Shown one piece after another: positions 114 through 33,834 of a stretch of DNA of 49,786 nt; the first letter of the stretch is position 1, and each line of letters begins with the position of its first letter. The stretch lies in assembly GCA_025935815.1 (NCBI GenBank), contig JAICUO010000001.1:1-49786 (forward strand), read 5' to 3'. The notes under the pieces were generated by a model, which saw nothing but the letters and a program-made list of their open reading frames with translations, had not been told where the DNA came from and made no database searches. The translations under genes and the position numbers were made by a program. This DNA is from Streptosporangiaceae bacterium (lineage in GTDB: Bacteria > Actinomycetota > Actinomycetes > Streptosporangiales > Streptosporangiaceae).

Positions 114-135
114 CTAGCTTAGCTAGCTAAGCTAG
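114..135. repeat. Perfect 22-bp palindrome over the monooxygenase stop codon
   Basis: CTAGCTTAGCTAGCTAAGCTAG equals its own reverse complement. Confidence 0.7.
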
Positions 136-1297
136 CCAGGTCGCGTTCCACGTCGTAGCGCTGAATCCAGGAGGAATCTTCGACCATGGATTGCACCGCG
201 CCGGGCCGGCCAGAATCACCGGATGACATGCGCAGGGAGCCATTGCCGCGGGAGCCCAGCTGAACTCGGGTGGCGTGCGGACGCCGGGTCGCCTCGTACC
301 TGCGCAACGCTGCGCCGACCGTGACCGCCGGGACCTCGGCGAGGCAGACGGCGAGGGCAACGGCGTCCTCGATGGCCTGGTTGGCGCCCTGCCCGTGGTG
401 CGGCAGCATCGGATGGGCGGCGTCGCCGAGCAGCGTGACCCTCCGGGTGCTCCAGCGTTTCAGCGGCTCCCGGTCGTAGAGCGCCCACCGTCCGGCCTGG
501 GTCACCGCGGAGACGATGTGCTGCACGGCGGGCTCCCAGCCAGTGAACACCGTGGCGAGGTCGGCCACGTCAGCGTGCGTGCTCCAGGACTCGATCGTCC
601 AGTTCGGATCGGTGATCACGGCGACGAACGTGACCATCTGCCCAGCCCGCACCGGGTAGCACAGCAGGCGGGCGTCGGGGCCGGCCCACAACAGGATGGT
701 GTTCGCAGCCGATTCGGGCAGCAGGCGGGCCGGGACCAGCGCCCGGAATGCGCTGTTGCCGGAAAAGACGGGATCGCCGCCCGGCGCGACGGTCGCCCGG
801 ACGACCGAGTGGATGCCGTCCGCGCCCACCAGCACGTCGGCATCACAGGTCGGGCGGTCGGCAAACTGCAGGCGGACCGCTTCACCGTATTCCGTGAAGC
901 CGGCTAGCTTCCAGCCCAGGTGCAAGCGCTCGGGCGGCACCTGGCTGGCCAGCATCTCATGCAGGTCGGCCCGGTGTACGGTGTAATAGGGCGCGCCGAA
1001 CTCGGCCGCCCAGGACGCGCCCATCGGCTGCCGGGCCAGGACGCGGCCGTCCTTCCAGTTCCTGACTTCCATCGCGGCCGGCTGCGCGGCCATCTCTCGC
1101 AGCTGCGCGGCCAGGCCCAGCCGCTGCAGGAGCCGGGTCCCGTTCGAGCCCAGGTGCAGGCCCGCGCCTACCTCCCGCAGGGCGGGCGCCTGCTCGTACA
1201 CCTCGACCTCGATACCGCGGCCGGACAATGCCGCCGCCGCGGCCAGCCCGCCGATTCCCGCCCCCGTCACCGCTACCCGCAACGGCCCCATGCTCAC
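119..1297 (-). CDS. FAD-dependent monooxygenase (salicylate hydroxylase-like, group A flavoprotein)
   Basis: N-terminal GAGIGG Rossmann motif, DVLVGADGIHS (DG motif), TLLGDAAHPMLPHHGQGANQAIED (GD motif); start GTG 1297 or ATG 1291. Confidence 0.9.
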   Translation of the reverse strand: MSMGPLRVAVTGAGIGGLAAAAALSGRGIEVEVYEQAPALREVGAGLHLGSNGTRLLQRLGLAAQLREMAAQPAAMEVRNWKDGRVLARQPMGASWAAEFGAPYYTVHRADLHEMLASQVPPERLHLGWKLAGFTEYGEAVRLQFADRPTCDADVLVGADGIHSVVRATVAPGGDPVFSGNSAFRALVPARLLPESAANTILLWAGPDARLLCYPVRAGQMVTFVAVITDPNWTIESWSTHADVADLATVFTGWEPAVQHIVSAVTQAGRWALYDREPLKRWSTRRVTLLGDAAHPMLPHHGQGANQAIEDAVALAVCLAEVPAVTVGAALRRYEATRRPHATRVQLGSRGNGSLRMSSGDSGRPGAVQSMVEDSSWIQRYDVERDLASLAS

Positions 1298-1377
1298 GAC
1301 GACCGCCCCTTTCGGCTGACTGTGCGAGGCACCCGGATCTGGCCACGGCCGGGGATCCTCGCTCCGGTCACCTGCAC

Positions 1378-1410
1378 AGGCTGCCGGCCGGCGCTATGCG
1401 GGTGCTATAT
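1378..1410 (-). promoter_or_regulatory. Putative SARP-dependent promoter of the monooxygenase
   Basis: Minus strand reads ATATAGC-accc-GCATAGC-9 nt-CAGCCT; the same geometry occurs at three other promoters in the cluster. Confidence 0.6.
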
Positions 1411-1428
1411 GGTCACCGCGCGCGTGAC

Positions 1429-1471: not shown

Positions 1472-3595
1472 TTATCCGTGCGAGACTCGCTCCGTGGGGC
1501 TGCTGATTCCTCCGGCGGTGGCATTGCGCGCCAGCCGGCCAGGCCACCAGAATGCGCGGCCCACGTCCAGCGCCAAGGCGGGCACGAGAACCGACCTGAC
1601 CAGGAAGGTGTCGATCAAGACACCCACGGCCACCAGCGTCCCGATCTCGACGAAGGCGACCTGCGGCGCCGTGCCCAGCGCGGCGAAGGTTGCCGCGAGC
1701 ACCGCGCCCGCGCTGGTGATGACGCCCCCGGTGGCGGCCAGGCCGCCCAGGACGCCGCTGCGATGCCCGAATCGCGCGACCTCCTGGCGGATCCTGGAGA
1801 CCAGGAAGATGTTGTAGTCGACGCCGAGTGCCACCAGGAATATGAGCCCGGTGAGCATGAGCTGGACGTCGACCGCGCCGTAGTGGAAGACGTGCGCGAA
1901 GAGCAGCCAGCTGATGCCGAGGGCGGCGAAGTACGACAGCAGCACGGTGAGGATCAACAGCAGCGGGCCAACCAGTGCCCCGAGCAGCACGATCAGCACC
2001 GCGAGGACCACGACCACGACGAGCGGGATGACCGTCCGCCGGTCGTGCGCCTGCGCTAGCGCCTTGTCAATGTTCTTCGCCGTGGTGCCGCCGACCTGGG
2101 CGCCCGCGCCGGGGATGGCGCCTACGGCCGTCCGGGCCTGGTTCACGGCAGCGGTAGCCGCCTGACTGTCGGTCGGGACGCCCAGCACGGCGTCCACCCT
2201 GATCAGCTGGCCGTCGGTGGAATGCTCCACCGGGAGCACCTGGGCCACGCCCGGCACGCCGCGGACTGCGCTGACCACCTGGCCGGCGGCCGCCGGGGCG
2301 GCGACAACCCGGATGGGATCGCTCTGGCCGGCGTGATAGTGGTCAGCCAGCATCTGCTCGCCGACGATGGAACCGGGGTGGCCGACGAAGCTGTGCGCGT
2401 TGTCCAGCCCGGTCTTGAGGCCGAGCGCGCCGAACGCGAGTGCGCCCAGCACCACGGCGGAGGTGACCCAGATCGTCCGCGGCCGACGGACGATCTGGGA
2501 GCCTATGCGAGCCCACCGCGACTGGGCCATGGGGTCCGGGTCTCCGGCACGGGGGATCCTCGGCCAGAACACCCAGCGGCCGAGGATGACCAGCAGGGCC
2601 GGCAACAGCGTGATCATGGCGGCCAGGCCGCACAGGACGCCGATTGCCCCCGCGGGGCCGAGAACGTAGTTGAATCCCATGCTGGCCGTGAGCAGGCACA
2701 GGAGGCTGACGCTCACGGTCACTGAGGACGCGATAATCGCCGGCGCGGCCCGGCCGAGCGCCATCGCCATGGCAGCGTGCCGATCCTGGCACCGGCGTAG
2801 TTCCTCCCGGTAACGGGCCAGCAGCAACAACGCGTAGTCGGTGCTGACGCCGAACACGAGCACCGTCACCACGACGGCGGTGCCGGAATCGACCGGCATG
2901 CCGAAGAACCTGGCCAGCAGGTAGCTCACTGCCTCGGAGACCGCGAGGGCGGCTCCGGCATTCAGCAGCGGCAGCAACCACAGCACCGGGCTGCGGTAGG
3001 TAAAGAACAAGATCACGGCGATTACCAGGATCGTGACCAGCAGCACGGCCTTCGTGCTCTGCTGCTGGGCATCGTAGGCATCGAGGGCGTTGCCGGCCGG
3101 ACCGGTCAACTGGGCGGCGACCCCCGCGGGCAGGGCCTGCTGTGCCTGGGCGCGAACCTGGCGGGCGTCGGTGGTCAGGGTCTTGGTGTTGGTGCTGAGC
3201 GCGACGATCACCTGCAGTGCCTTGCCGTCCGCCGATGAGAGGATCGGTCCGACCGGCTTCACCGCGTACTTAGCGAAGGCACTCCGGTCAGCCTGGGCCT
3301 TCGCCCGGTCAGCGCCGGTGATGCCACTGGAGTTCACGTAGACGACGATGCCTGGTGAGATGTTCCCGTCCGGGAAACGGTCGGCGACCCCCGCGACATC
3401 GGTGGACTGGGCGCCGCGGGGCAGCTCCACCGTGACGGGGTTCTTCTCCTGACCGGACAGCTTCCCGGCCAGCGGAATGGCCGCCGCGATAAGCAGTATC
3501 CAGATCCCCAGGAAGAGCCATTTGGCAATCTTGCCCGCTGGGAGCCTGGCGAGCCCTGTGGGGGACTCAGTGGAGGACTCATTTGAGAAGAACAT
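1472..3595 (-). CDS. MMPL/RND-family transporter
   Basis: 707 aa with two repeats of TM bundle plus loop; GVSTDYALLLLARYREE and ALGVDYNIFLVSRIRQE motifs; GAGGAG RBS before ATG 3595. Confidence 0.92.
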   Translation of the reverse strand: MFFSNESSTESPTGLARLPAGKIAKWLFLGIWILLIAAAIPLAGKLSGQEKNPVTVELPRGAQSTDVAGVADRFPDGNISPGIVVYVNSSGITGADRAKAQADRSAFAKYAVKPVGPILSSADGKALQVIVALSTNTKTLTTDARQVRAQAQQALPAGVAAQLTGPAGNALDAYDAQQQSTKAVLLVTILVIAVILFFTYRSPVLWLLPLLNAGAALAVSEAVSYLLARFFGMPVDSGTAVVVTVLVFGVSTDYALLLLARYREELRRCQDRHAAMAMALGRAAPAIIASSVTVSVSLLCLLTASMGFNYVLGPAGAIGVLCGLAAMITLLPALLVILGRWVFWPRIPRAGDPDPMAQSRWARIGSQIVRRPRTIWVTSAVVLGALAFGALGLKTGLDNAHSFVGHPGSIVGEQMLADHYHAGQSDPIRVVAAPAAAGQVVSAVRGVPGVAQVLPVEHSTDGQLIRVDAVLGVPTDSQAATAAVNQARTAVGAIPGAGAQVGGTTAKNIDKALAQAHDRRTVIPLVVVVVLAVLIVLLGALVGPLLLILTVLLSYFAALGISWLLFAHVFHYGAVDVQLMLTGLIFLVALGVDYNIFLVSRIRQEVARFGHRSGVLGGLAATGGVITSAGAVLAATFAALGTAPQVAFVEIGTLVAVGVLIDTFLVRSVLVPALALDVGRAFWWPGRLARNATAGGISSPTERVSHG

Positions 3596-4188
3596 AACAC
3601 GCGCTCCTCGTCGATGGGTGGATGAGGAGCAGGGAAGGTCATGTGCCTCGTCAAGATGGCGCGAGCATCCGGCCGGGCATCCCCTTCCGGCCGCTCGTAG
3701 CGTGCCAGCAGCTTGTTAAACTCCTCGAGAAATTCTTCGAACTCGCGAGGCGTGACATGGATAACGCCACGAGAATAATGGACCTGGCTTTCCCATTCCC
3801 CTCCCCTGTCCTGCTCGAGTTGGGAACGCATCAGATCATCCAGGTCAGCAGCAAAATTGATCCTGTTAATCTCGTCGATCAATGCGTGCATCTCTGCCGT
3901 CTGCTCCTTTCGTGGGAGAAGTCGAAGCTCTACACGCGCCGAGCGCCACCAGCGGTCCCGGCCGCTTGACCGTTCAAGCATTTCTTCGATGTAGCCGTGC
4001 TTCGCCATCTGTTCCAGGTGGAGATTGGTCAGCTCGATGGTCTCGCCGAGCACGCGGGCGAGCGTGTTGGATGATGCCGGGCCGTGCTGGAGTTGTGCGT
4101 CTATCCGGAGGCGCTTCGGCTGCGCCTGCACTGCCAGCGAGGCCAGGTCGGTTGTCGTCACGCCCTTGCCGGCGGCCGCGCTCGCCAT
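3334..4188 (-). CDS. ArsR-like winged-helix transcriptional regulator (C-terminus reads into the MMPL gene)
   Basis: QPKRLRIDAQLQHGPASSNTLARVLGE...HLEQMAKHGYIEE...GRDRWWRS resembles actinobacterial ArsR/HTH_20 proteins; start uncertain (ATG 4188 or GTG 4161). Confidence 0.7.
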   Translation of the reverse strand: MASAAAGKGVTTTDLASLAVQAQPKRLRIDAQLQHGPASSNTLARVLGETIELTNLHLEQMAKHGYIEEMLERSSGRDRWWRSARVELRLLPRKEQTAEMHALIDEINRINFAADLDDLMRSQLEQDRGGEWESQVHYSRGVIHVTPREFEEFLEEFNKLLARYERPEGDARPDARAILTRHMTFPAPHPPIDEERVLCSSQMSPPLSPPQGSPGSQRARLPNGSSWGSGYCLSRRPFRWPGSCPVRRRTPSRWSCPAAPSPPMSRGSPTVSRTGTSHQASSST

Positions 4189-4260
4189 GGCCGCCGGATA
4201 ACACACCCGCGAGGCGGAAGCATCCATGGCTTGATCATCATGGCCACGAGACAGCCGAAT

Positions 4261-4303
4261 CCAGGGGGGCACCTCCCGACTATGCGGTTCGGTTACCTAC
4301 ACT
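4261..4303 (-). promoter_or_regulatory. Paired imperfect palindromes, putative response-regulator site upstream of the ArsR-MMPL operon
   Basis: AGTGTAGGTAACCGAACC (minus, 4303-4286) resembles 7291-7308 and 7227-7244; second GGGGGGC/ACCTCCC element centred 24 bp away. Confidence 0.45.
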
Positions 4304-4763: not shown

Positions 4764-6692
4764 GTGGTGCGGTATCGGGTTCTCGGCCGTCTTGAAGTGC
4801 AGGTTGCTGATCGTTGGGTATCGCTGCATCCGACAAAATGGCGGCTGCTGCTGTCGGTGCTCTTGTGCGCGGCGAATCAGGTTGTGCCTTCAGAGCGGTT
4901 GATCGCGGAGCTTTGGGATGAAGAGCTGCCGCAGAGCGCACGCAAGCTACTGCAAGGATATGTCTCCCACCTCCGCCGCGCACTGGACGACGGAACGGCC
5001 CCCCCGCTCACGACCCATAAATGGGGATACCAGGTCTACGGCTATCAGTTGCATGTAGAGAGCGGGCAGACAGATGCCCAGCGATTTGAAAAGCTATTCG
5101 TTCAAGGACGTGCAGCCCTGGCCGACGGGGCTTTGCCGACCGCGCTCGCCCGCTTGGATGAGGCACTGCGACTGTGGCGGGGCAAGCCATTCATGGACGT
5201 CCCGCCCACGCCGACCGTGGCGGTGGAGACCGTCCGGCTCGAGGAGCTCCGACTCCTGGCAATCGAATCTCGCATCGATACATACATGCGCTGCCATGAG
5301 GACTACACGGCGCTGGCGGAGCTGGAAGCCCTCGTGGTGGAGTATCCGCTTCAGGAGCGGCTGAATGGCCAGCTGATGCGCGCGCTGTACCGGGCCGGCC
5401 GGCAGGCCGATGCGCTGATGGTCTACCGGAGGCTGCGCAAGCTGCTAGTCGATGAGCTTGGCGTAGAGCCAAGCAGCCCGGTACAGCAGCTTCACCAGCA
5501 GATCCTTAGCGCCGATACGGCGCTGCTCACTGACGCCTCCACCAGTGACAGACCGGTCACCATCGCGTCGGCACGCGTGGCGCCGTTGCGGGTTCCTAAG
5601 GCCAGCGGAGTGCTGACCGGACGCGAATGGGAACTGTCGAGGCTCGCCGAGATGCTCGATCCGGACGACCGCACGTCGGCCAAGGTCGTGGTCGTTGATG
5701 GCCCGCCCGGGGTCGGCAAATCGGCACTCGCGATCGAGGCCGCGCACCGGCTTGCGCCGCAGTTCCCGGATGGCCAGCTCTACCTCGACCTGCAAGGATC
5801 CACCCTGGGAGCGCAGCCACTGACGGCCTCGGCCGCCTTGCACCGGCTTCTCCGCCTGCTAGACCAGGCGGAGACGACCCCCGCCGACCCCGACGAGTCA
5901 TCGGCGCTGCTCCGCTCGCGACTCGCCCACCATCGCATGATCTTGGTCCTCGACAACGTGGACGACGCTGATCAGGTGTCTGCGATCTTGTCAGCCCGCG
6001 GCGGCTGCGCGATCCTTGTCACGAGCCGCGGGATCCTGGCCACCTTGGACGGCGCCGCCCACATGCACCTGGACATCCTGTCGGAGGACCAGGCCGTGGC
6101 GTTCCTCGGGGAACTCGCCGGACCTGCCCGGGTCGCGGCTGAGCCAGACGCCTCCTTGATGATCGCGCGGTTGTGCGCCGGGCTGCCCCTCGCCCTGCGG
6201 ATCGCGGGAGCACGGCTGGTCGCGCGTCCCGGATGGTCCCTGCGCGTCTTCGCCGAGCGGCTGGCGGATTCGCGGACCCGGCTCGATCAGCTTCAGGTGG
6301 GCAACCTGGGCGTGCGGGCAGCCTTCGAGGTGAGCTACCGGGCGCTTGACAGCAGCGAGGATCCGATTGATCAGCTGGCGACGAGCGCGTTCCGGGCAAT
6401 GGGCCTGCTGGATGAGCCCAGCCTCGGTGTCCCGGTCGTCGCGACACTCCTCGCCGAGCGGCCCGAGGCGGTGGAAGCTTCGCTGGAACGCCTGGTGGAC
6501 GTGCGCCTTGCCGAGGAGACCGGGCCCGGACGCTACCGGCTACGCGACCTGTCGCGGTTGTTCGCCTGGGAGAAGACAGGAAGCCAGCGCCCGCTGAAGC
6601 TCAGTGAGCTTGCCGATGGCAGGGCCGTCCTCGATCTCATCCGGGCCGCGCGGGCCTCTCGCGGTAACCGACCGTGCTCGTCAGGTGATTGA
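4764..6692 (+). CDS. SARP/AfsR-family regulator (OmpR-type wHTH + BTAD + NB-ARC, no TPR tail)
   Basis: YRVLGRLEV start, LIAELW, ALRLWRGKPF, PLQERLNGQLMRALYRAGRQADAL...LVDELGVEPS (BTAD), Walker A GPPGVGKS, LVLDNV, GLPLAL; GAGGGAG RBS. Confidence 0.93.
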   Translation: MVRYRVLGRLEVQVADRWVSLHPTKWRLLLSVLLCAANQVVPSERLIAELWDEELPQSARKLLQGYVSHLRRALDDGTAPPLTTHKWGYQVYGYQLHVESGQTDAQRFEKLFVQGRAALADGALPTALARLDEALRLWRGKPFMDVPPTPTVAVETVRLEELRLLAIESRIDTYMRCHEDYTALAELEALVVEYPLQERLNGQLMRALYRAGRQADALMVYRRLRKLLVDELGVEPSSPVQQLHQQILSADTALLTDASTSDRPVTIASARVAPLRVPKASGVLTGREWELSRLAEMLDPDDRTSAKVVVVDGPPGVGKSALAIEAAHRLAPQFPDGQLYLDLQGSTLGAQPLTASAALHRLLRLLDQAETTPADPDESSALLRSRLAHHRMILVLDNVDDADQVSAILSARGGCAILVTSRGILATLDGAAHMHLDILSEDQAVAFLGELAGPARVAAEPDASLMIARLCAGLPLALRIAGARLVARPGWSLRVFAERLADSRTRLDQLQVGNLGVRAAFEVSYRALDSSEDPIDQLATSAFRAMGLLDEPSLGVPVVATLLAERPEAVEASLERLVDVRLAEETGPGRYRLRDLSRLFAWEKTGSQRPLKLSELADGRAVLDLIRAARASRGNRPCSSGD

Positions 6693-7169
6693 CCTGCCAT
6701 AACGGTCGATGACGAAGGTATTCCGCACTCCTCTAGATAGCAGGAAGTAGGCTGCGATAAGCAGGTTCGGCACCGAGTCGACGATCGTGCCCGTATTCGA
6801 TTTCTCCCCGATTGCATGCCAGGAAACGAGAAATACTACCGAGAGGATGTTGAAGACTACATTATTTATGATAGCTGACTTGCGCCGCCGCGACATCAGG
6901 AAGAACAGATAGATCACGTAAAGGACTAGCGCTACGTTGCTTGCGATGTAGAACACCAGGGAGCCAAACGGGACATGCGAATGCGATCCGGTGGCACGAG
7001 CGTGGGCATAGACTATTATCGAGCCGACCGTAAGCACCGAGTTGTGCACGGCGAAGATGGCGAGGAGGACGAAGTAGACTCGCAGCAAGCCGCCCAAGCG
7101 CGGCAGGTTCCCGCCGCGACTGGCCGCCTTCTGTGGCCTGCCTGCATGGCGTGATTCGTGTAGTCGCAT
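6681..7169 (-). CDS. Small membrane protein (about 4 TM helices, DUF2569-like)
   Basis: Hydrophobic segments, LGGLL near the N-terminus, YFLLSRGVRNTF at the C-terminus; visibly lower GC. Confidence 0.6.
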   Translation of the reverse strand: MRLHESRHAGRPQKAASRGGNLPRLGGLLRVYFVLLAIFAVHNSVLTVGSIIVYAHARATGSHSHVPFGSLVFYIASNVALVLYVIYLFFLMSRRRKSAIINNVVFNILSVVFLVSWHAIGEKSNTGTIVDSVPNLLIAAYFLLSRGVRNTFVIDRYGRSIT

Positions 7170-9420: not shown

Positions 9421-9453
9421 ATATATCGCCGATATAGCCGGCCCTCCTAGGGT
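9421..9453 (+). promoter_or_regulatory. Putative SARP-dependent promoter of the ebo-like cassette
   Basis: ATATATC-gccg-ATATAGC-9 nt-TAGGGT. Confidence 0.65.
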
Positions 9454-9490
9454 GCGGGCTATAGGCGCACGCGCGCCACAGGGAGGGATA

Positions 9491-12417: not shown

Positions 12418-12470
12418 CCGGTAACTGTGTTGGCTTCCGCGAATTGCGCGGAAGCCAACACAGTTACCGG
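12418..12470. terminator. Long hairpin between convergent genes, likely bidirectional terminator
   Basis: CCGGTAACTGTGTTGGCTTCCGCG-aattg-CGCGGAAGCCAACACAGTTACCGG, perfect 24-bp stem. Confidence 0.8.
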
Positions 12471-12500
12471 ACAGTAGCGGCAGGCGAGGCTCTTGTTCGC

Positions 12501-13445: not shown

Positions 13446-13487
13446 CTGCGCCTCCATTTTAACTATCCTAAATTCCACCAGGCGGAA

Positions 13488-13520
13488 AGCCTAGCGTCCC
13501 CAGCAATACGCGCTCTATAT
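13488..13520 (-). promoter_or_regulatory. Putative SARP-dependent promoter of the dioxygenase
   Basis: Minus strand ATATAGA-gcgc-GTATTGC-9 nt-TAGGCT. Confidence 0.65.
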
Positions 13521-14558: not shown

Positions 14559-14572
14559 CGGGCCGCCCGTCG

Positions 14573-27100: not shown

Positions 27101-30100
27101 CGGATGGAATCGCCGCCGAGGTCGAAGAAGCTGTCCGCCACGCCCACCCGCGCAACGCCGAGCACCTGCGACCATGCGGCCGCGACCCACTCCTCCACCG
27201 GCGTCCGCGGGGCGATGTACTCCCCTCCCGGCGCGGAGGCGGCTCCGTCCGGCGGCGGCAGCCGCCGCACGTCCAGCTTGCCGTTCACCGTCAGCGGGAT
27301 CTCCGTCAGCGGCACGAACACCGCCGGGATCATGTAGTCGGGCAACGACCGGGCCAGCAGCGTCCGCAGTTCCCCCGTTGGCGGGACATCGTCTCCCTCC
27401 GGCACGACGTAGGCGACCAGGCGCTGCCGGCCTGGTGTGTCCTCGTGCGCGACCACCACGGCGTCGTGCAGTCGGGAGCAGTCCCGCAGGGCGGCCTGGA
27501 CCTCGCCGAGCTCGATCCGGTATCCGCGGATCTGGACCTGATTGTCGATGCGGCCAAGGAAGTCCAGGGTCCCGCCGAGGCGGCGGCGAGCAAGGTCCCC
27601 GCTGCGGTACAGGCGTGATCCGGGCGGCCCGAACGGATCGGGCACGAACCGCTCGGCGGTCAGGCCGGGCCGGTTCAGGTAGCCCCGGGCCAGCCCGGCT
27701 CCGCCGACGTGGATCTCCCCGGGGACCCCGACCGGCACTAGGCGGCCATGCGGGTCAAGCAGGTAGATGCGCAGGTCGCTGAGCGGTCCTCCGATGGGGC
27801 TGGCGGCCGAGCCCAGATCCTGCCCGGTAAGCCGGTGGTAGGTGGTGTGCACCGTCGTCTCGGTGATCCCGTACATGTTCACCAGCGCCGGGCTGTCCAG
27901 GCCGAGGCGCGCGGCCCACGGCCGAAGCTCCGGGATCTGCAGCTTCTCGCCGCCGAAGATCACATAGCGGAGTTTCAGCCGGGCGATCCGCTCATCGCCG
28001 TCGGCGGCGAACCGGATCAGCGCGCGGAACGCCGAGGGCGTCTGGCTGAGCACCGTTACCTTGTGCTTGACCAGCAGGTTCAGGAAGTCGTCAGTAGAGC
28101 GGGCAACGTGGAACGGGACCACGACGGCGCAGCCGCCGTACAGCAGCGCGCCCCACATCTCCCACACGTAGAAATCGAACGCGTAGGAGTGGAACAGCGA
28201 CCACACGTCGGTGTGGTCGAACCCGTAGTGCCGCTGGGTCACCGTGAACAGGCGCAGCACGCTGCCGTGGGTCACGCACACGCCCTTGGGCCGGCCGGTG
28301 GATCCCGATGTGTAGATGACGTAGCTGAGGTTGTCGGCGCAGGTGGCCCGCTGCGGGTCGAGCGGGGAGTGCCGGGTGATGGCGGACTCGTCCCGATCCA
28401 GCACCACCAGCTCACCCGGGTGCACCTGCGCGGCCAGCGGCACGTAGGCGCTCTGGGTGACGACGATCCGCGCTCCGGCATCGGCGACCATGAAGGTCAG
28501 CCGGTCAGCGGGGTAGGAGGGGTCCAGCGGGAGGTAGGCCGCCCCGGACTTCAGCACCGCCACCAAGGTGATCACCACGTCGACACCGCGCTCCAGGCAC
28601 ACTCCGACCAGCGTGTCCGGTGCGGCGCCGAGGCTGCGCAGGTGATGGGCTAGCTGGTTGGCCCGGCGGTTCAGCTCGGCGTAGCTCAGCGTGACGTCAC
28701 CGCAGACGACCGCGACCGCCGCTGGCGTGGCCCGCACCTGGGCCTCGAAGGCATCGGCGACCGAGCGCTGGCCTGCGGGAGCCGGGGCCTGCGCCTCGCG
28801 CTGGCGGTCGCGGACCACGGCCAGCTCGTCCTCGCCGAGGATTTCCAGCGCTCCGACCATCGCGGTGGGCCGGGACGCGGCGTGGGCCAGCAGCCGCACC
28901 AGGTGCTGGCCCACTCTCTCGACGGTGTCCCGGTCGAACAGCGCGGTCGCATATTCCAGCTGCCCGTTGATGGCTCCCTCGGCTACCTCCTCCATCTGCA
29001 GGGACAGGTCGAACTTGGCCGTCCGCCAGGGCACCTCCAGTGACTGGGCCGCGATCCCGGGAAGGTCGATTCCGAGGACCTTCGGCTCGGCCATGATGAA
29101 GGAGACTTGGAACAACGGGGTGCGCGACAGGTCTCGTTCGGGTGAGAGCTTGTCGACCAGCTGGGCGAACGGGACCTGCTGGTGGTCAAGGGCGTCCAGC
29201 AGGACGACCTGGGTGAGCGTGATCAGCTCCGAGAAGGCCAGGTCGCCCGGCCACTGGCCGCGCAGGACCAGGTTGTTGATCCCGTAGCCGATCAGCCGCT
29301 GCAGTTCCGGGCGGGTCCGCGCGGTGGCCACCGTCCCGACCACGACGTCCGGCCGGCCGGTGTAACGGGCCAGGAGCGCCTGGAAGGCCGCCAGCAGCAC
29401 CGTGAACGCGGTCACGCCGTGCGCGCGGGCGAGCTCGCGCACGGCGTCGGCGAGCGGCTCCGGGATGCGGACGGGAATGGCGTCTCCCTGCCAGCTGCGG
29501 GTGTCCGGACGCTGCCGGTCGGCGGGCAGGTCGACCCGCTCATGGCCGGCCAGCTGATTGCGCCAGTACTCGATGCTCCGCTCCATCGCGGGCGTGGCCG
29601 CGAGGTCGCGCTGGTAGGCGGCGAAGTCGGCGTACTGGATCGGCAGCGGCTCCAGCGGGCAGGGGTCACCGGCGATTGCCGAGCGGTAGCAGGCGCTGAG
29701 GTCCTCGGCGAACACTCGCAGCGACCAGGCGTCGCAGGCGATGTGGTGGAAGATCACCACCAGGAGGTGATCGTCGTCCGCGATGCGGATGAGGCGTGCC
29801 CGCAGTGGCCACTCCCGGGCAAGGTCAATGCCCGCGGACGCGTCCTGCTCGGCGAGCCGCATTGCCTGGCGTTCCCCGTCCGGCGCTTCGCGCAAGTCGG
29901 TGACGGTGAGGGTGTCCGGCCATACCGGGCCGATGACCTGGACCGGCTCGGTGCCGGCCAGCGCGTACCGGGTGCGCAGGATTTCGTGGCGCTCGATGAT
30001 GGCGTCGATGGCGACGGACATCGCATCCGGGTCCAGCGGGCCGCGCAGCCGGAGGATGAGCGGGATCAGGTACTCCGGGCTATCGGGTTCCATCCGGTTG

Positions 30101-30255
30101 AGGAACCACATCTGCTGCTGCCCGAACGACAAGGGCAGCGGTCCTTCCCGGTCTACGGGCGCGATCCGCAGGCGCCGCCTGCCACGGGCCCCTGGATGCC
30201 GTCGCAGCGACTGCGTAGCGTCGGTGCTGGTCTGATTGACATCCCCGATGGTCAT
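18148..30255 (-). CDS. NRPS2: C-A-T-C-A-T-C-A-T-E(degenerate)-beta-lactamase-like domain, 4035 aa
   Basis: Three TSGSTGRPKG A domains; T motifs GGDSI, GGHSI, GGDSL; C motifs HHIACDA, CHAILEG, LHAITEG; E-like region; C-terminal ASVSK (SxxK) domain. Confidence 0.95.
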   Translation of the reverse strand: MTIGDVNQTSTDATQSLRRHPGARGRRRLRIAPVDREGPLPLSFGQQQMWFLNRMEPDSPEYLIPLILRLRGPLDPDAMSVAIDAIIERHEILRTRYALAGTEPVQVIGPVWPDTLTVTDLREAPDGERQAMRLAEQDASAGIDLAREWPLRARLIRIADDDHLLVVIFHHIACDAWSLRVFAEDLSACYRSAIAGDPCPLEPLPIQYADFAAYQRDLAATPAMERSIEYWRNQLAGHERVDLPADRQRPDTRSWQGDAIPVRIPEPLADAVRELARAHGVTAFTVLLAAFQALLARYTGRPDVVVGTVATARTRPELQRLIGYGINNLVLRGQWPGDLAFSELITLTQVVLLDALDHQQVPFAQLVDKLSPERDLSRTPLFQVSFIMAEPKVLGIDLPGIAAQSLEVPWRTAKFDLSLQMEEVAEGAINGQLEYATALFDRDTVERVGQHLVRLLAHAASRPTAMVGALEILGEDELAVVRDRQREAQAPAPAGQRSVADAFEAQVRATPAAVAVVCGDVTLSYAELNRRANQLAHHLRSLGAAPDTLVGVCLERGVDVVITLVAVLKSGAAYLPLDPSYPADRLTFMVADAGARIVVTQSAYVPLAAQVHPGELVVLDRDESAITRHSPLDPQRATCADNLSYVIYTSGSTGRPKGVCVTHGSVLRLFTVTQRHYGFDHTDVWSLFHSYAFDFYVWEMWGALLYGGCAVVVPFHVARSTDDFLNLLVKHKVTVLSQTPSAFRALIRFAADGDERIARLKLRYVIFGGEKLQIPELRPWAARLGLDSPALVNMYGITETTVHTTYHRLTGQDLGSAASPIGGPLSDLRIYLLDPHGRLVPVGVPGEIHVGGAGLARGYLNRPGLTAERFVPDPFGPPGSRLYRSGDLARRRLGGTLDFLGRIDNQVQIRGYRIELGEVQAALRDCSRLHDAVVVAHEDTPGRQRLVAYVVPEGDDVPPTGELRTLLARSLPDYMIPAVFVPLTEIPLTVNGKLDVRRLPPPDGAASAPGGEYIAPRTPVEEWVAAAWSQVLGVARVGVADSFFDLGGDSIRAVALVGALRDAGLNISLTDVFERRTVAGVCELVASRQSPAPELTLVAPFELITKADRERLPADVVDAYPLSRLQLGMLVEMLADHDLNAYHNVTSFRIRDDKPLSPEAIQEATRIVVGRHEVLRTSFELTGYSTPIQLVHPAADVAVRTIDLRRANADQQRAAIRAFTSQERSRQLDLSTPPLVRVTAHMCDGNTWWISITECHAILEGWSYHSLLMELLGYYRRIRDGLQPEPLELPAIRYADFIASELQTLADDRDRDHWRVVVSAHPKLSLPAAWGDGPDSPRTVHRIKEPLPGIDSELRPLAAECGASVKSVLMAAHLKVMSMLTDEPAFFTGLVCHGRPEAPGTERVFGVYLNTVPFAFDRSARTWRELVGQVFAQEAQAWAHRRFPMPEIQREMGGGQRLIDVRFAFLDFPQLDTTLIDVEATVDESPSEFGLAIIALGGNLLLTSNTQVVSEANLARLAAMYRAVLAAMLADPDGDAQAAYLPPGERERLLNDWNLPAMNPGPAQSVHGLFELQVTMSPDSPAVTFNGQSMTYRQLDARANQIAHRLRELGATAETTVGVLLDRGPDLVACLLAVWKAGAAYIPLDPSFPAQRIGMMLADASARIAVTGSRHRGLIAAAGHDVTVVDIGEDEISRMPTASAGIQADPDRLAYVIFTSGSTGRPKGVQVTHRGLANHVRWAAETLAAQGTRGAPLFSSVAFDLIVPNLWAPLVTGQPVHMLPPGLDIADLGHTLAARGPFSFIKLTPGHLDVLSRQLDDEQAGKLAAVIVVAGEALLGQLADRWLQLLGPGRLVNEYGPTEASVGSSVFGVDEPATSQITPIGRPLPGMTLYVLDAGMHPVPIDVPGELYVGGTGVARGYAGRPGMTAGRFLPDPFGRPGARLYRTGDTVRVRPDGVVCFLGRVDDQVKLRGYRIEPGEIRSTLLGHPAVLEAVVVASGSGTEDRQLVAYCVPAQDARPAAAELAAHCAASLPEYMVPAIFMMMERLPLNANGKVDRGALPQPDLARAAGPQFAAPRSPLEHQIAEVWRVVLELDQVSVHESFFDLGGHSIRGVALVGALRAAGLDVGVGDVFEHRTIAELAAVLAARTELSEDTGSVPPFALISAHDKERLPGDITDAYPLSYAQRGMLAEMLADPSRSIYRDCASFQVRDDRPFSQATLEQAVQVVVDRHEILRTSFDLAGYSVPLQLVHARAQLPVSLVDLRGLTEAEQELAVRRLHQRERAAMFDLGKPPLMRLTALIQGELTWRLAFTQLHAITEGWSFHSMLMEVLSGYRRLRDGLAPEPYQAPAARYADFIAAEQRSLESEEDRAYWQQVVADFPKLTLPSAWAGDPRMPRDDYGVIVVYEDLHDGLRALASASRTSLKSVLHAAHLKVMSMLTPEPAFSSGLVCSTRPQAQGADKMYGVFLNTVPFAFERPAGTWRELAAQTFKGEAELLPHQRLPMTVIQREMGDGSRLIDVLFTYQEYHQIDTDLIEVDATEGVTVTEFGLNVAANPRFLALLTHTHAISRASADRLAAMFRAVLEAMAADPDGDARAAYLPPGEGQPAITAGPAPAVTMCMHEVLEQRASEAPGAPAVVAGAGELSYAQLNARANQVAHHLRDLGVGPESLVGVCLQPGLDLIPVLLGVLKAGGAYLPLPVSAPAERLRFMLGDTVVSVVVTDGEHAPALADVYAGDLVILDQDEAAIASSPATNLTTAVRPDNLAYVIYTSGSTGRPKGVGVTHASVLRLFTAMAGRAEFDAAQTWALLHSHAFDVSVWEMWGALLHGARLVVVPPEIAQAPDELFTFFERHQVTTVAISPVAFRALIGSAGGDGTRLSRLALREVLFGGDPLEAADLAEWVASQGIGRTRLTQGYGPTEATVQVTYHVIGEADLSAGGRVPIGRPVDDMRVYVLDAAGRPVPDGVPGELCAAGPGVARGYIDRPALTAELFVADPYGPAGSRYYRTGDLVRRRADGNLDFLGRIDDQVKVRGYRVEPGEVQAVLAAHPQVREAVVIAYGDDPGGKRLVAYYTPAGAGPVQAAELAAHCAQRLPDYMVPGAFVALDRIPLTRNGKLDRRGLPAPDRASLWSSSTEFLAPRTATERRLAGIWAGLLGVDQVGAHDRFMDLGGDSLMVLRALSQARSAGLPVSLRMIYQYGSIAELAGAIDRASALLAAGGRDGRPLQLTPAQRILLDRNAAGQPDQYQASLHLTRPVDAETLDAALRAVTSHHDALRLRVVPVDRRWHVTLAAADAAGPVRRASPAGRSQPGRTGSGQPVLAERAVNERALTELGQRLDIADGPVLDALLVSPDGGQPARLAMAAPALVMDRASWLALLEDLETAYHQLAAGQEVALPPASIEFGPWAGQLADMAARTELTGQAHHWLNLVPGPPLPADGPEGTALVASARTITESLPAGLAGQLRQVPAQNLRELMLAALAVVLTRWAGGDRLLVDVEGRPQRGAAAGRDLRRAVGPFTHRFPVALWIPPRQGARAVLRSVGEQLRAVPDDGLGYGMLRHLAVDDALADALARMPSPAVRFGFAQSPADGAGPSGTFTLDDLVAIRDPMTAREHLLEVDVLAETAQIRSWWTYSPAVHHEATIRRLMAEYAAELATMADSWPAAEASAPAARGGRPRSVSAPSPAEAVMSEHHVPGVSLATIRGGELVSADAYGRVDARGSAPVTSQTLFRVASVSKQVTALGVLRLVTEGRLDLDKDVNSYLVRWRLPGTGQSPVTARHLLANVAGLATEPDHAAYGHDEPLPTALEALAGRHPARTPQVRPKCPPGQLFEKNKNNYLVLDLLMTDITGRAFPQLMKELVFEPLGMVNSSFDPLCPATASQPVARGHDAFGIPVAGLGPAHPAIAAGGLWSTAEDIAKAQLEIRRAYLGQSALITQSLAEQMLTPTPGTLYGLSTVVDHLQADLDFGSVGEFTGYFAVAMCRIRSGDGFVLLTNADGGREIARIMADPAGDSGEFGRLAEARRIATATDAGREP

Positions 30256-30305: not shown

Positions 30306-33300
30306 TCATTCCGGCTCCATGAGCCCTGCCACGGCCGCGGAAAGCCGGGCTACCGTTGGCCGCTCGAATATCAGCCGGACGGGAAGCTCCAGGTCGAATT
30401 CATCCTGGATATCGGCCATCACCTGCAATGCGAGCCGGGAGTTCCCGCCGAACTGGAAGAAGTTCTGGTCAGCGTCCAGCTCGAGGCCGAGCGCCGTCGC
30501 CCAGATGGCGGTGATCCGGCGCTCGACCTCGCCCTGCGCCGCGTTCGCGCCAGCCGCCGCGCCGGCCGGCGTCATCGCAGGGTCGGCCGCCACTGTCGCC
30601 AGCGTCGCGATGAACCGGTCCGCCAGCCGGGCAATGGTGAGCTCGTCGAACAGGGACGTGGCGTACTCGAACAACCCGGTCATGCCGCCGTCCGCGGCCT
30701 CGTAGAGGTACAGGGTCAGATCCGTCCTGGCCGTACGCCAGATGGCCTGGTACGGGCCGAGGCTGTCGCGGCCCATCGTCTCCCCTTCGGCCAGGTAGTT
30801 GAAAATGACCTGATAGAGCGGAGTCCGCGAGAGGTCACGGGCGGGAGCCATCATGTCGACCAGCCGCTCGAAGGGCAGGTCCTGGTGCGCGAAGGCAGCG
30901 CGGCTCGTCCGCGCCACCCCGTCGAGCAGGTCATCGAAGCGCGCGTCGGGGGTCAGCCGGCAGCGGAGCACCAGCATGTTGAGGAACGCGCCGATCAGCC
31001 CGCCGATCTCGGGCCGGGTCCGCCCGGCCACCGGTGCGCCAATCGCGACATCCCACTGCCCGCTCCAGTCGGCCAGCAGGGCCGCGAATACCGTCAGGTA
31101 GGCCATGAATGTCGTCGCGCCGTGCTCCTTGCTCAGCTTGGCGATGCCGTTGGCGGTGTCGTCGGGGATGGCGAAGGTCACCGTCGCGCCCCGTGAATCG
31201 CGGACGGCCGGGCGGGGGCGGTCGGCGGGCAGTTCCAGGGGCGCCATGCCGCGCAGTTCCCGCTCCCAGAAGTCCAGGTGCGGCGCGATCACCTGCTCAG
31301 TCAGCGATGCCCGCTGCCATACCGCGTAGTCGGCATACTGAACCGGCACCGGCCGCAGGTCAGGCTCGCGGCCGTCCGCTATCGCGTCGCAGAGCTCACG
31401 GATATCGTCGGCGAACACCGCCGACGACCAGCCGTCGGAGGCGATGTGGTGAACCGCCAGCATCAGCATGTGCCCGGCCGCCAGGCCGGGCACGAGCAGC
31501 GCCCGCCACACCGGGCCGCGGGCCAGGTCGAAGCCCTGCTCGAACTCCGCGCGGATCAGGGCGTCCAGTTGCTCGCTGGTCAGGGTGGCATCGGCAACCC
31601 GTAGTGAGACCGGGCCCGGCTCATCGATAACCTGCCACGGCTCCCCGCCCTTGGCCAGGTACCGGGTGCGCAGGACCTCGTGCCGGGCCACCAGCGTCGC
31701 CAACGCGGCCTGGACCGTCTCCGCCGACAGGTGACCGGGCAGGCGAACCCCCATGGGCGTCACCCACTCGGTGTTGCCGGGATTCATCTGGTCGAGGAAC
31801 CACATCTGGTTCTGCTGGAAGGACACTGGCAGCGGCCCGTTACGCGGCACCGCCTCCAACTGCACCGCCTCCGGCTGCGGGAGCAGCTCACCGGGCCGAC
31901 CGATGAGGCGAGCCTGCGCGGCGACCGTGGTCTCGGTAAAGAGGTCCTGCATCGCGACCGGGTGCCCCGCGGCCGCCGCCAGGCGGCTGGCCAGCCTCGT
32001 CAGCAGCAGCGATGAGCCGCCCAGCTGGAAGAAGTCGTCCTGGGCGCCCACGTCCGCGACCTTGAGCAACTGCGACCACACCCCGGCGACCACGCGTTCA
32101 GCAGGCGTCTGCGGCGCCCCGCGGTCAGGCCGCTCACCGGAGTAGGGGTCGGGCAGCGCCGCCCGGTCCACTTTCCCGCTGGTCAGCATCGGGAATTCCG
32201 GCAGCACGACGAACGCCGAGGGGATGAAGGGATCGGGCAGCCGGGTCTTCAGGTGGCGGCGCAGCTGGTCCGGCGTGATCTCGCTGTCCTGGCTCAGCAC
32301 GTAGGCCACGAGGCTCATCGGGGCGTCGTCGCGGGCACGCGCCATGACGACGGCGCCTCGCAGCGCCGGATGGGCGAGCAAGGCCGTTTCCACCTCGCCC
32401 GGCTCTATCCGGACGCCGTTGACCTTGACCTGGTCATCGAGGCGGCCGAGGTAGTCAAGGGCGTCGTCGTGACGCCACCGGACCAGGTCCCCCGTGCGGT
32501 AGATCCGCGAGCCCGGCGGCCCGTACGGGTCGGGAACGAAGCGCTGCGCGGTCAGGCCCGGCTGGCCGAGGTAGCCGCGCGCCAGCGCCAGCCCGCCCAC
32601 GCACAACTCTCCAGGTGTACCGAACGGAGTGGGCCGGCTCCGTTCATCCAAGACCAGCACCCGCACGTTGGCGATGGGAGCGCCGATCGGCACCCGGCCC
32701 GACAGCTGTCCGGCATCCACGAGGTGGGCGGTGACGTCGATCGCGCACTCGGTGGGCCCGTAAGTGTTCCACATCTGCGCTGGCGAGCGCGTGCGCAGCT
32801 GCGCGCACAGCCCGGCGTCGAGCGGCTCGCCGGCCGAGGCGATCAGGCGCAGCGCACCGCAGCCACTCCAGCCGGGCTCATCGGTCATCAGTCGCAGCAC
32901 CGACGGGACCGCTTGCAAGACAGTGACGCCGAACCGGGCTACCGTGTCCAGCAGCAGCGCCGGATCGTGCTCCGCCCCGGCCGCCGGGAGGACCACGGCA
33001 CCCCCGCTGACCAGCGGCGCGAAGATTTCCCACCCCGCCGCGTCGAACGTCAGCGCCGTTCGCTGTATCACCCGGTCAGCGCTGGTCAGCCCTTGCTCGC
33101 GCACCGTCCACAGGACCCGGTTCGCGATGGCCTCGTGGGTGATCACCACGCCCTTGGGCCGGCCGGTCGAGCCGGATGTGTAGATCGCGTAGGCGGCCAT
33201 GGCCGGGGCCGGCCCACCGGAAGGCACCGTGTCCGGTGCACCCGCCGCCTGGTCGTCGATCTCGGACGGGAAAAGCACCGGGACACCGCTCCCGGCGGCC

Positions 33301-33644
33301 TTCCCGGCGCCGGCCGCGTCGGTTACCAGCAACCGCGGTCCCGTGTCCGACAACAGCCATCGCAGCCGCTCTGCGGGCTGGGCAGCGTCCAGCGGCACGT
33401 AGGCGGCCCCGCACTTCCAGACCGCCAGCAGCACGGCAACCAGGTCCGGGCACTTGGGCAAGCAGACCGCGACCAGGCTCTCCGGCGCCACTCCGGCATC
33501 CAGGAATGCCCGCGCGAGCCGGTCGGACCGGGCGCCGAGGGCGGCATAGCTGACGGGCCTGCCCCGGCTGTCGATGATCGCGGGCGCGTCCGGGGTCAGT
33601 GCTGCCGCGCGAGCGAACAGGGCAGGTAGCGGTTTGGCATCCAT
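30306..33644 (-). CDS. NRPS1: A-T-C-T, about 1112 aa
   Basis: YTSGSTGRPKG, YRTGD, SGKVDR; T1 FFQLGGSSL; C HHIASDG; T2 FFQFGGNSRL with no A domain in between; start ATG 33644. Confidence 0.93.
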   Translation of the reverse strand: MDAKPLPALFARAAALTPDAPAIIDSRGRPVSYAALGARSDRLARAFLDAGVAPESLVAVCLPKCPDLVAVLLAVWKCGAAYVPLDAAQPAERLRWLLSDTGPRLLVTDAAGAGKAAGSGVPVLFPSEIDDQAAGAPDTVPSGGPAPAMAAYAIYTSGSTGRPKGVVITHEAIANRVLWTVREQGLTSADRVIQRTALTFDAAGWEIFAPLVSGGAVVLPAAGAEHDPALLLDTVARFGVTVLQAVPSVLRLMTDEPGWSGCGALRLIASAGEPLDAGLCAQLRTRSPAQMWNTYGPTECAIDVTAHLVDAGQLSGRVPIGAPIANVRVLVLDERSRPTPFGTPGELCVGGLALARGYLGQPGLTAQRFVPDPYGPPGSRIYRTGDLVRWRHDDALDYLGRLDDQVKVNGVRIEPGEVETALLAHPALRGAVVMARARDDAPMSLVAYVLSQDSEITPDQLRRHLKTRLPDPFIPSAFVVLPEFPMLTSGKVDRAALPDPYSGERPDRGAPQTPAERVVAGVWSQLLKVADVGAQDDFFQLGGSSLLLTRLASRLAAAAGHPVAMQDLFTETTVAAQARLIGRPGELLPQPEAVQLEAVPRNGPLPVSFQQNQMWFLDQMNPGNTEWVTPMGVRLPGHLSAETVQAALATLVARHEVLRTRYLAKGGEPWQVIDEPGPVSLRVADATLTSEQLDALIRAEFEQGFDLARGPVWRALLVPGLAAGHMLMLAVHHIASDGWSSAVFADDIRELCDAIADGREPDLRPVPVQYADYAVWQRASLTEQVIAPHLDFWERELRGMAPLELPADRPRPAVRDSRGATVTFAIPDDTANGIAKLSKEHGATTFMAYLTVFAALLADWSGQWDVAIGAPVAGRTRPEIGGLIGAFLNMLVLRCRLTPDARFDDLLDGVARTSRAAFAHQDLPFERLVDMMAPARDLSRTPLYQVIFNYLAEGETMGRDSLGPYQAIWRTARTDLTLYLYEAADGGMTGLFEYATSLFDELTIARLADRFIATLATVAADPAMTPAGAAAGANAAQGEVERRITAIWATALGLELDADQNFFQFGGNSRLALQVMADIQDEFDLELPVRLIFERPTVARLSAAVAGLMEPE

Positions 33645-33769
33645 GACGCTCTCTTTCGTGCGGTGCTCACTACGGTCCACCGCTGCCGCAGGCGCAACGG
33701 CCGCAGGGCGGTCCGCGCCTCATCGATATGGCCGAGGTGCGCGGCAGCGCCCGTCTCTTCGCCACATCG

Positions 33770-33802
33770 ATGATCCGTTTGGCGGCAATACCCCATCTAT
33801 AC
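33770..33802 (-). promoter_or_regulatory. Putative SARP-dependent promoter of the NRPS operon
   Basis: Minus strand GTATAGA-tggg-GTATTGC-9 nt-GATCAT. Confidence 0.6.
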
Positions 33803-33834
33803 GAGTTGGGGCCCGGCGCTGTGTGTGCGCGAGA

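Follow-up and report, generated by a model that had tools for sequence, protein, structure and literature searches.

A nonribosomal peptide synthetase cluster of a Streptosporangiaceae bacterium with a putative glyceryl cassette in place of an adenylation domain

Introduction

Nonribosomal peptide synthetases (NRPSs) of the vioprolide and cystomanamide pathways use an FkbH-derived glyceryl unit in place of an adenylation (A) domain, and in vioprolide the ester to this unit is made by a condensation (C) domain (PMC8949500). A cluster built in a different way is found in 49,786 nucleotides of DNA from a Streptosporangiaceae bacterium (GenBank assembly GCA_025935815.1, contig JAICUO010000001.1), a stretch termed the window. 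FkbH is a cis domain in the published NRPSs, whereas in the window a stand-alone FkbH protein and acyl carrier protein (ACP), together with a ketosynthase III-fold protein (KSIII) and a vicinal oxygen chelate (VOC) protein, appear to serve a C-thiolation (C-T) module that lacks an A domain, and the acyl donor would be an amino acid residue.

Quinocarcin and naphthyridinomycin offer a further parallel, in that an NRPS module without an A domain receives its unit, via a ketosynthase-like shuttle, from a hydroxyacyl-ACP that derives from primary metabolism. These pathways differ in that the unit is a glycolyl group from a transketolase-like pair, the scaffold is a tetrahydroisoquinoline, and there is neither an FkbH protein nor an epimerase. 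The window KSIII has the same-spaced Cys-His-Asp triad as ChlB3 and CerJ (PDB 7EQI and 3S3L), of which ChlB3 performs carrier-to-carrier acyl transfer (PMC9573744); the predicted substrate here is glyceryl and the acceptor an NRPS T domain. Each part of the arrangement has precedent, and what is new is the documented swap, a putative glyceryl epimerase and a rebuilt release domain fused in cis, in a family that is apparently uncharacterised. The cluster is real and coherent, and covers approximately 55–60 kb across two contigs.

Synthetase genes and loss of the module-2 A domain

The window is the whole of contig C311 in the assembly of a soil actinomycete (8.0 Mb, 83% complete), and its contig end is a repeat. 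Pfam and NCBIfam searches of the window found every gene named in a first-pass annotation where it had been placed, and bore out the tightly packed minus-strand operon NRPS1-NRPS2-KSIII-FkbH-ACP-VOC. The KSIII start is 5 nt past the NRPS2 stop codon, and the stop-start overlaps from KSIII through VOC are 1 nt and 4 nt. The long open reading frames (ORFs) of KSIII and of an SGNH hydrolase extend upstream of the true starts. A contig from an independent sequencing run (X1) matches window positions 12455–16982 and 16976–19036, in two pieces and with zero differences, and therefore the cassette is no assembly artefact. The core genes are as follows.

30306..33680, minus strand: NRPS1, A-T-C-T
18148..30255, minus strand: NRPS2, (C-A-T)x3, a degenerate epimerization (E) domain and a beta-lactamase fold
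17126..18142, minus strand: KSIII-fold acyltransferase with a ChlB3/CerJ-type Cys111-His295-Asp300 triad
15237..17126, minus strand: FkbH-type glyceryl transferase/phosphatase with DxDxT and the SCRV cysteine; TIGR01686
14977..15240, minus strand: stand-alone ACP
14573..14980, minus strand: VOC protein that resembles methylmalonyl-CoA epimerase and carries His/Glu/His/Glu metal ligands; candidate C2 epimerase of glyceryl-ACP

NRPS1 has the A1 code DAWQAATIDK. In alignment, its module-2 A domain is cleanly deleted and the serine of T2 is retained. Among the best 120 listed of 2739 homologues that passed, 113 have the two-A order A-T-C-A-T and seven have one A domain. The module-2 codes of the 113 are Asn-like in 89, Ser in nine, Thr in nine, Gly in four and other in two. 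Gene neighbourhoods were read for a metagenome contig and for six close clusters, and an A-less NRPS1 goes with a cassette behind NRPS2 in five of five cases (the window, G430, G431, G580 and L193). Two Streptomycetaceae clusters, G907 and G1137, have an A-T-C-A-T NRPS1 and no cassette, and a KSIII profile search of these genomes (95–96% complete) gave no match. The G1127 cluster is truncated within NRPS2 and shows no cassette, and none was found in ten distant clusters, read over 80 kb each. The module-2 code of G907 and G1137, DVWNVAMVHK, is listed for L-Ser in tistrellabactin (PMC10391617, Table 1). No stand-alone A-T didomain is present on C311 or on C127, the contig on which the cluster appears to continue.

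We consider it rather probable that the cassette supplies the A-less module 2 with glyceric acid in trans, which would place an ester where the relatives are predicted to have L-serine. Homologous loci that routinely lack FkbH and KSIII, which by the first-pass annotation would refute its reading, do exist, but they carry a full module-2 A domain and so support the proposal. The predicted order of glycerate, then Thr or dehydrobutyrine (Dhb), then Asn is likewise strengthened by the comparative evidence.

The cassette genes and their relatives

FkbH scores 263 bits against TIGR01686 (cut-off 147) and has both the HAD DxDxT motif and the C-terminal Cys, and is thus a member of the family; by family knowledge, FkbH loads D-glyceryl on a carrier (PMC8949500). 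KSIII residues C111, H295 and D300 align with ChlB3 C113, H296 and D301, in a distant match to ChlB3/CerJ (E 1e-17). The Cys-His-Asp triad, as opposed to Cys-His-Asn, is invariant in 22 KSIII homologues, and the protein would perform acyl transfer without Claisen condensation. Tetronate ring formation was considered and set aside, as there is no polyketide synthase (PKS) on C311 or C127 and the KSIII triad is of the non-Claisen type. The VOC protein shares its fold and metal ligands with methylmalonyl-CoA epimerase, but falls below the equivalog cut-off (TIGR03081, 63 bits vs 115); at most, it may act like that enzyme.

A scan of a species-genome collection gave 77 KSIII loci, 56 of which have FkbH and ACP genes behind KSIII. 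An N-hydroxylase and a MetRS-like gene stand beside KSIII in 47 of the 77, termed N-N-bond type here from a reading of Pfam hits, and phenazine genes do so in 20. KSIII occurs with a window-type NRPS2 in only two (L018 and L079, both cultured Nonomuraea strains). A quick tree was built from 78 rows, namely the window, G580 and 76 of the 77 loci. It groups the four KSIIIs of NRPS type in a single clade (SH-aLRT 97) that lies within the N-N-type sequences, with enclosing branches of 85–93. No KSIII orthologue was found among 30 relatives or in 400 phylum-wide genomes. The cassette is apparently portable, and recruited from N-N-bond clusters.

The N-N-type loci (L010, L017, L031 and 44 more of L010–L086) carry a Lys/Orn N-hydroxylase, a cupin, the MetRS-like protein and an ATP-grasp ligase, as well as an amidinotransferase-like gene, a peptide-binding protein and an M1 aminopeptidase; their product is likely an N-N-bond (hydrazine) compound that bears a glyceryl group. 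Among named records, Salinispora arenicola and Streptomyces chartreusis have close homologues of KSIII. The 20 phenazine loci (L057–L086) have an A domain with KSIII, and a few (L062, L077 and L080) have KSIII-FkbH-ACP instead, which would mean that aminoacyl and glyceryl donors were exchanged there in parallel.

Named records with neighbouring accessions for NRPS2 and KSIII represent further copies of the system, some of them perhaps from the same genomes. The G430 cluster assembly (L091–L093) has many frameshifts, probably sequencing errors, and another N. salmonea record has an intact NRPS2 of 3889 aa. An FkbH gene also lies amid NRPS modules in L210, an unrelated metagenome cluster.

NRPS2 modules and the candidate hydroxylase

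The A-domain codes of NRPS2 are DFWSIGMVHK (A1, Thr), DLPKVAEVGK (A2, Asn-like) and DVWALGGVQK (A3, no assignment). A1 is Ser-coded in G430, G431 and G580. The nearest PDB matches of C2 and C3 are the modAA domains of McyA and AmbE (E 6e-59 to 2e-44, a ranking by sequence match), and the next-best matches are at E 2e-27 to 2e-32. These best matches, and the Thr module and GGDS-type T domain that precede C2, make up the likeness to the CmodAA domains of McyA, AmbE and AlbB (PMC10880069). For myxovalargin and odilorhabdin, a hydroxylase acting with a dehydrating C domain has been proposed (PMC10880069).

In G430 and G431 a CmlA-type hydroxylase stands in place of the TauD-family protein of the window. 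The SyrP-like hydroxylase and SGNH esterase of the first-pass annotation are present, but neither is conserved in the six closest clusters. The E domain (approximately 19279–20580) is degenerate, since its HHxxxD motif reads APALVMD; it is missing in several close homologues and is probably vestigial.

The fused terminal domain, a probable release domain

The penicillin-binding protein (PBP)-type thioesterases (TEs) SurE, PenA and Ulm16 are described as stand-alone proteins with a lipocalin domain (PMC11735501; bioRxiv 10.1101/2024.11.16.623930). In the window, a beta-lactamase-fold domain (approximately 18253–19200; Pfam PF00144) is fused to the end of NRPS2; there is no lipocalin domain, and the protein ends approximately 35 aa past the fold. 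An alignment-based model (pLDDT 91.5) gives Foldseek matches to DD-peptidase, SurE and ClbP folds, with SurE at rank 6 (TM 0.75). The Ser and Lys of SxxK are invariant in 42 rows, while the Tyr and Asn positions of YxN are both Lys in the window, and the Tyr is kept in only 3/42 rows. The catalytic His is Ser in the window; it is lost in five close-clade rows and retained in 37/37 others. The likeness to the PBP-type TEs is therefore that of a beta-lactamase fold with SxxK at an NRPS terminus, and membership in that group was rejected because of the cis fusion, the missing lipocalin domain and the replaced Tyr, Asn and His. The PBP-like release domain proposed in the first pass stands with respect to fold, but it does not have the features that define a PBP-type TE.

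The domain is also fused to NRPS2 in 37/37 long proteins (the search was limited to 2219–7062 aa), and the fusion was verified directly in ten distant and six close loci. Matches were found in 33/401 Streptomycetaceae genomes and 10/400 order-level genomes; there were none in 43 congeners, which are mostly incomplete metagenome-assembled genomes. The domain likely acts as a release enzyme. Lactonisation on the position-2 hydroxyl, or hydrolysis, is most likely because the N-terminus is capped; the cap is itself probable, and head-to-tail cyclisation is unlikely.

Probable continuation on contig C127

A search of the bacterium's own genome for genes present in related clusters but missing from the window showed that they cluster on C127. 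This contig has a tryptophan halogenase (nearest PDB match the 5-halogenase 2WET, E 5e-229), an ornithine carbamoyltransferase (OTCase)-like protein, a Tat-secreted protein, an isomerase, EboA, EboE and an EboF-like phosphatase. It also has a flavin reductase, a SARP regulator, an aromatic ammonia-lyase, a CoA ligase, a major facilitator superfamily (MFS) protein, a second KSIII, a type II TE-like ORF, an ACP, a stand-alone C domain, MbtH, SbnB and SbnA, and farther out a DAHP synthase. Identity to the close-cluster proteins is 68% for MbtH, 64% for the OTCase-like protein and 61% for SbnA, and for most close-cluster genes absent from the window C127 has the best or sole match in the genome. 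The absence of PKS, classical TE and MbtH genes from the window, noted earlier, was confirmed; MbtH and the type II TE-like ORF are on C127. In the second KSIII (L151:12800-13816), Ser occupies the position of the catalytic Cys and the His-x4-Asp pair is kept; we take this Ser-for-Cys change to be DpsC-like.

The start of the window and the start of C127 are the two halves of a single, near-perfect palindromic repeat of approximately 53 bp. A 19-mer of the repeat has eight copies in the assembly, four of them near contig ends, and half copies occur only on C127 and C311. Copies of the repeat are located at window positions 1–50 and on C127, C113, C385 and C40. Sequencing depth peaks at the ends of C127 and of the window, and the repeat is deep in public runs. 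DNA runs X1 and X2 give coverage of the two stretches in 30/30 bins, at similar depth; contigs from RNA runs X5 and X10 lie over both, although contigs cannot show transcription. It is very likely that C127 adjoins the window and that the cluster continues there.

Residue 1, the acyl cap and the wider family

The starter code DA[WL]Qx[AC]T[IV]DK is common to all 120 best NRPS1 homologues, and we presume that it resembles Gln codes. Nine of the ten distant clusters have it, and of these nine, eight have an OTCase-like gene and five a close SbnA. In G1076, G981 and G914 the genes sbnA-sbnB-mbtH-NRPS1 are contiguous, and module 1 has the sole non-standard code (SbnA/B function is described in PMC12751119). 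The C127 OTCase-like protein scores 227 bits against an equivalog cut-off of 281, and the ornithine SMG/HCLP motifs are missing from this protein in 16/16 cluster loci matched. A true ornithine carbamoyltransferase, and hence citrulline as residue 1, is disfavoured on both counts. The best fit, and a reasonably likely one, is beta-ureidoalanine, a Gln isostere that occurs in zwittermicin (PMC4392301).

Genes for the acyl cap vary: a PKS in G430, G431 and G580, a FAAL (fatty acyl-AMP ligase) in G907, a FabF-type protein in G1137, and an ammonia-lyase with a CoA ligase on C127. A stand-alone C domain accompanies every cap type. The ammonia-lyase (L151:9624-11198), with hydrophobic specificity residues, lies near the PyrH-like tryptophan 5-halogenase (L151:275-1807). 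Its best match is BagA (628 bits, below the cut-off of 1000), and it has Leu-Leu at the specificity position, where tyrosine lyases have His. From these residues, its substrate is possibly Phe or chloro-Trp, and the protein is possibly a chloro-tryptophan ammonia-lyase. The first-pass model of a short peptide, X1 to X4, is supported as to the order of glycerate, Thr/Dhb and Asn; it missed the acyl cap, the diaminopropionate/carbamoyl pathway and the halogenase, all encoded on C127.

Nor is the cluster an orphan, as was first thought, since a large homologous family exists. The family (L153–L192; P0180–P0207; P0211–P0327) has the invariant starter, SbnA/B, the OTCase-like protein, paired TauD proteins and FAAL-ACP-stand-alone C. 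It further shares xxHxxxEG C domains and the fused beta-lactamase-fold terminus, and is also found on Streptomyces plasmids. No product or description of the cluster or family was found in open-licence full texts, and subscription journals, supplements or MIBiG may contain a described product. The foxicin, ashimide and rotihibin clusters were compared and rejected, as their NRPS architecture and accessory genes differ (gene tables and text of PMC5318452, PMC6427947 and PMC8552735).

The ebo-like and other genes of the window

The remaining features of the window that lie within the cluster region are given below.

1..50: right half of the palindromic genomic repeat; the other half opens C127
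119..1297, minus strand: salicylate-hydroxylase-like FAD monooxygenase, nearest in the PDB to tropone 2-monooxygenase (8RQH)
1472..3595, minus strand: MMPL-family exporter
3334..4272, minus strand: probable winged-helix regulator (weak HTH_20 match, E 0.004), unnamed in the first pass
4764..6692, plus strand: SARP regulator, BTAD + NB-ARC
6681..7169, minus strand: DUF2569 membrane protein, also in the G431 cluster
7367-8686, plus strand: sensor kinase
8705-9406, plus strand: LuxR-type response regulator
9452..12368, plus strand: ebo-like genes for myo-inositol-1-phosphate synthase (MIPS), an SCO3242-family UbiA prenyltransferase and a TatD-like hydrolase
12501..13478 (likely start 13445), minus strand: TauD-family 2-oxoglutarate dioxygenase, candidate carrier-bound Asn beta-hydroxylase
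13614..14558, plus strand: SGNH/GDSL hydrolase with a lipoprotein-like signal; not conserved

The plus strand thus carries MIPS-UbiA-TatD, the two-component system, SARP and SGNH genes. Homologues of the sensor kinase and response regulator are found in 5/6 close clusters, as is the FAD monooxygenase (51–60% identity). This monooxygenase is far nearer tropone 2-monooxygenase (E 1e-96) than other solved enzymes, and it travels with ebo operons (L263–L264 in G709; L253 in G1207). The 3′ end of the regulator-like ORF (3334–4272) enters the MMPL gene by 262 nt in another frame, possibly from loss of a stop codon.

Homologues of EboA, EboB/TatD, EboC/UbiA, EboE and EboF come together only across C311 and C127. 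The EboA domain and EboE are above cut-off, and UbiA scores 362 bits against NF045897 (cut-off 260); the EboD sugar-phosphate cyclase is absent, and MIPS is in its place. Six to seven of seven ebo-like genes are in-cluster in 6/7 close cases, often co-directional behind NRPS2 or interleaved, and G430 retains MIPS only. That ebo genes generally accompany the fused release domain was rejected, as neither the distant clusters nor ebo operons elsewhere bear it out. No ebo genes were found in the 80 kb read for each of the ten distant clusters with the fused domain, and among 39 distant genomes there are nine SCO3242-family matches, all on other contigs or more than 1 Mb away. Ten ebo operons elsewhere are mostly without an NRPS, and two have a close FAD monooxygenase.

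The cluster for calcium-dependent antibiotic (CDA) also brings together an NRPS and such genes. We take it to have an adjoining monooxygenase, SARP and two-component system, and its NRPS presumably differs in having 11 modules and a classical TE. This NRPS lipopeptide cluster (S. coelicolor SCO3210–3249) includes the SCO3242 prenyltransferase and the myo-inositol phosphate synthase SCO3243, which gives the ebo-NRPS association a precedent; the NRPS is another one, and there is no FkbH cassette (PMC3610822). The ebo operon (PMC6282210), for which an export role is proposed, likewise has EboA, EboE, UbiA, TatD-like and phosphatase genes. Here MIPS and an extra isomerase replace the cyclase, and the genes form two separate groups with NRPS-pathway genes in between. 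The ebo genes would represent a recruited export or accessory module and not part of the scaffold.

G431 and G580 encode, beside the Tat-secreted protein, a protein with a weak tryptophan-2,3-dioxygenase-like tail (L089:18080-19618 and L138:1301-2656), which has no match in the window bacterium's own genome at E 1e-20. A search of the ESM Atlas with the Tat-secreted protein gave nothing above 0.8. To the right of 33.8 kb and outside the cluster (33835–49537), the window has plant-wall degradation genes (pectinesterase, GH43-ricin and glucuronoyl esterase-CBM2), together with TerC, MsrA/B, and SpoIIE-type and NB-ARC-TPR regulators.

Proposed pathway and alternatives

The predicted product is probably an N-acylated five-unit compound, arylacryloyl-ureidoAla-O-glyceryl-Thr/Dhb-(OH/dehydro)Asn-X. 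SbnA and SbnB would form diaminopropionate, and carbamoylation by the OTCase-like protein would give beta-ureidoalanine for A1, a step that we favour to a fair degree. The ammonia-lyase, CoA ligase, Ser-type KSIII and ACP of C127 would supply an aryl-acryloyl cap (chloroindole-acryloyl, cinnamoyl or coumaroyl), which the stand-alone C domain would transfer to residue 1. FkbH would put D-glyceryl on the ACP. L-Ser and L-glycerate have the same geometry, FkbH gives the D form, and the VOC protein is epimerase-like with its ligands present; for these reasons an inversion of C2 on the ACP by VOC, to L-glyceryl as a stereo-analogue of L-Ser, is suggested, though we put it slightly below even. Transthiolation of glyceryl to T2 by KSIII is likely, and the NRPS1 C domain would then form the ester. 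NRPS2 would add Thr, Asn and a small residue, with dehydration of Thr to Dhb by C2 and formation of beta-hydroxy- or dehydro-Asn by TauD and C3. Release by the fused domain would most probably give a macrolactone on the position-2 hydroxymethyl, an outcome that leads the others but that we put below even, with hydrolysis somewhat less probable. MMPL and MFS proteins would export the product, with the ebo genes as a co-regulated export aid.

A number of observations weigh against this scheme. All ten A-less NRPS1s in the trees form a single clade (support 0.97–1.0), and because the KSIIIs also form a single clade, the correlation of A-domain loss with the cassette represents one event and not five. 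The NRPS1 trees do not place G907 and G1137 as sisters of the A-less clade; this, with the 89/113 Asn-like module-2 codes, means that synteny is the source of the ‘serine’ reading. Placement of the nearest A-complete rows is weak, and 5/7 of them are Ser/Thr-coded. VOC is within 10 kb in only 32/56 FkbH-bearing loci, and in N-N-bond and phenazine clusters KSIII probably acylates a small molecule and not a carrier. C2 and C3 have the motifs CHAILEG and LHAITEG (xxHxxxEG) and not the classical CmodAA motif HHxxxDG (PMC10880069), and distant relatives use the same C type after Gly, Val and Ala-like modules, i.e. non-hydroxylated residues; dehydration is thus not assured. No hydroxylase was found in 4/6 close clusters, so that only 3/7 have one when the window is counted. 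The release domain has lost the Tyr, Asn and His typical of its fold, and none of the contigs listed for the runs examined bridges the C127-C311 junction.

The way in which T2 is loaded can be seen differently, in that A1 of NRPS2 may act twice and load T2 with Thr or Ser, while KSIII attaches glyceryl to a peptide amine or hydroxyl in the manner of CerJ/ChlB6. The closest KSIII relatives are indeed in N-N-bond and phenazine clusters that have no A-less module, the Ser code of A1 in G430, G431 and G580 would fit, and A-less modules are often filled in trans with amino acids (PMC8949500; PMC8552735). However, loss of the A domain and gain of the cassette fall on the same branch, with the A domain kept in 113/120 homologues, the cassette begins 5 nt behind NRPS2, and glycerate corresponds exactly, as its hydroxy analogue, to the residue that the closest A-complete clusters encode; we regard a double use of A1 as unlikely. 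Very improbable, in our estimate, is that C127 is not adjacent to the window, or that the ebo, monooxygenase and halogenase block is a separate neighbouring pathway, in which case the product would have no aryl cap. The junction does lie inside an eight-copy repeat spanned by no contig, G709 has ebo genes, the FAD monooxygenase and the Tat protein with no NRPS within 20 kb, and most close clusters are without halogenase and ammonia-lyase. Yet C127 provides the close-cluster genes that the window is missing, from MbtH, the OTCase-like protein and SbnA to the stand-alone C domain, and for most it has the genome's best or only match.

The fused domain may also have another role, and beta-lactamase folds can transfer acyl groups, as in LovD and CapW. 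The ebo genes may make a prenyl-cyclitol that accepts the peptide from the fused domain, with export by MMPL and possibly liberation outside. In 6/7 close clusters ebo genes are interleaved with NRPS2 or directly downstream of it, the five close-clade domains have lost the His kept in 37/37 others, and an ebo lipid carrier has been suggested for scytonemin export (PMC6282210). But the same paper, in its account of that carrier, reports no covalent conjugate, the close clade is a single lineage, and neither the ten distant clusters, the nine unlinked SCO3242-family matches nor the ebo operons elsewhere, mostly NRPS-free, show the association. Such an acceptor is quite improbable, as is the combined proposal that the close-clade domain is a transacylase to the ebo carrier and VOC the first glyceryl-carrier epimerase. 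Trans-loading of glycerate followed by release as lactone or acid is the scheme that we prefer.

Significance

If a transacylase were nonetheless the answer, both the product and the task of the ebo operon would be defined, and NRPS release by a new, cis-acting chemistry would be present in approximately 8% of the Streptomycetaceae genomes sampled. On the preferred scheme, the cluster represents a natural amide-to-ester swap, whereby deletion of an A domain went together with recruitment of a portable glyceryl cassette; if right, it would provide a ready design for trans-loading hydroxy acids into peptides. The cultured Nonomuraea strains with the cassette form make both the swap and the function of the ebo genes accessible to test. 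The work also opens a large NRPS family, one for which no product was found in the texts covered, that ends in a cis-fused PBP-fold domain.

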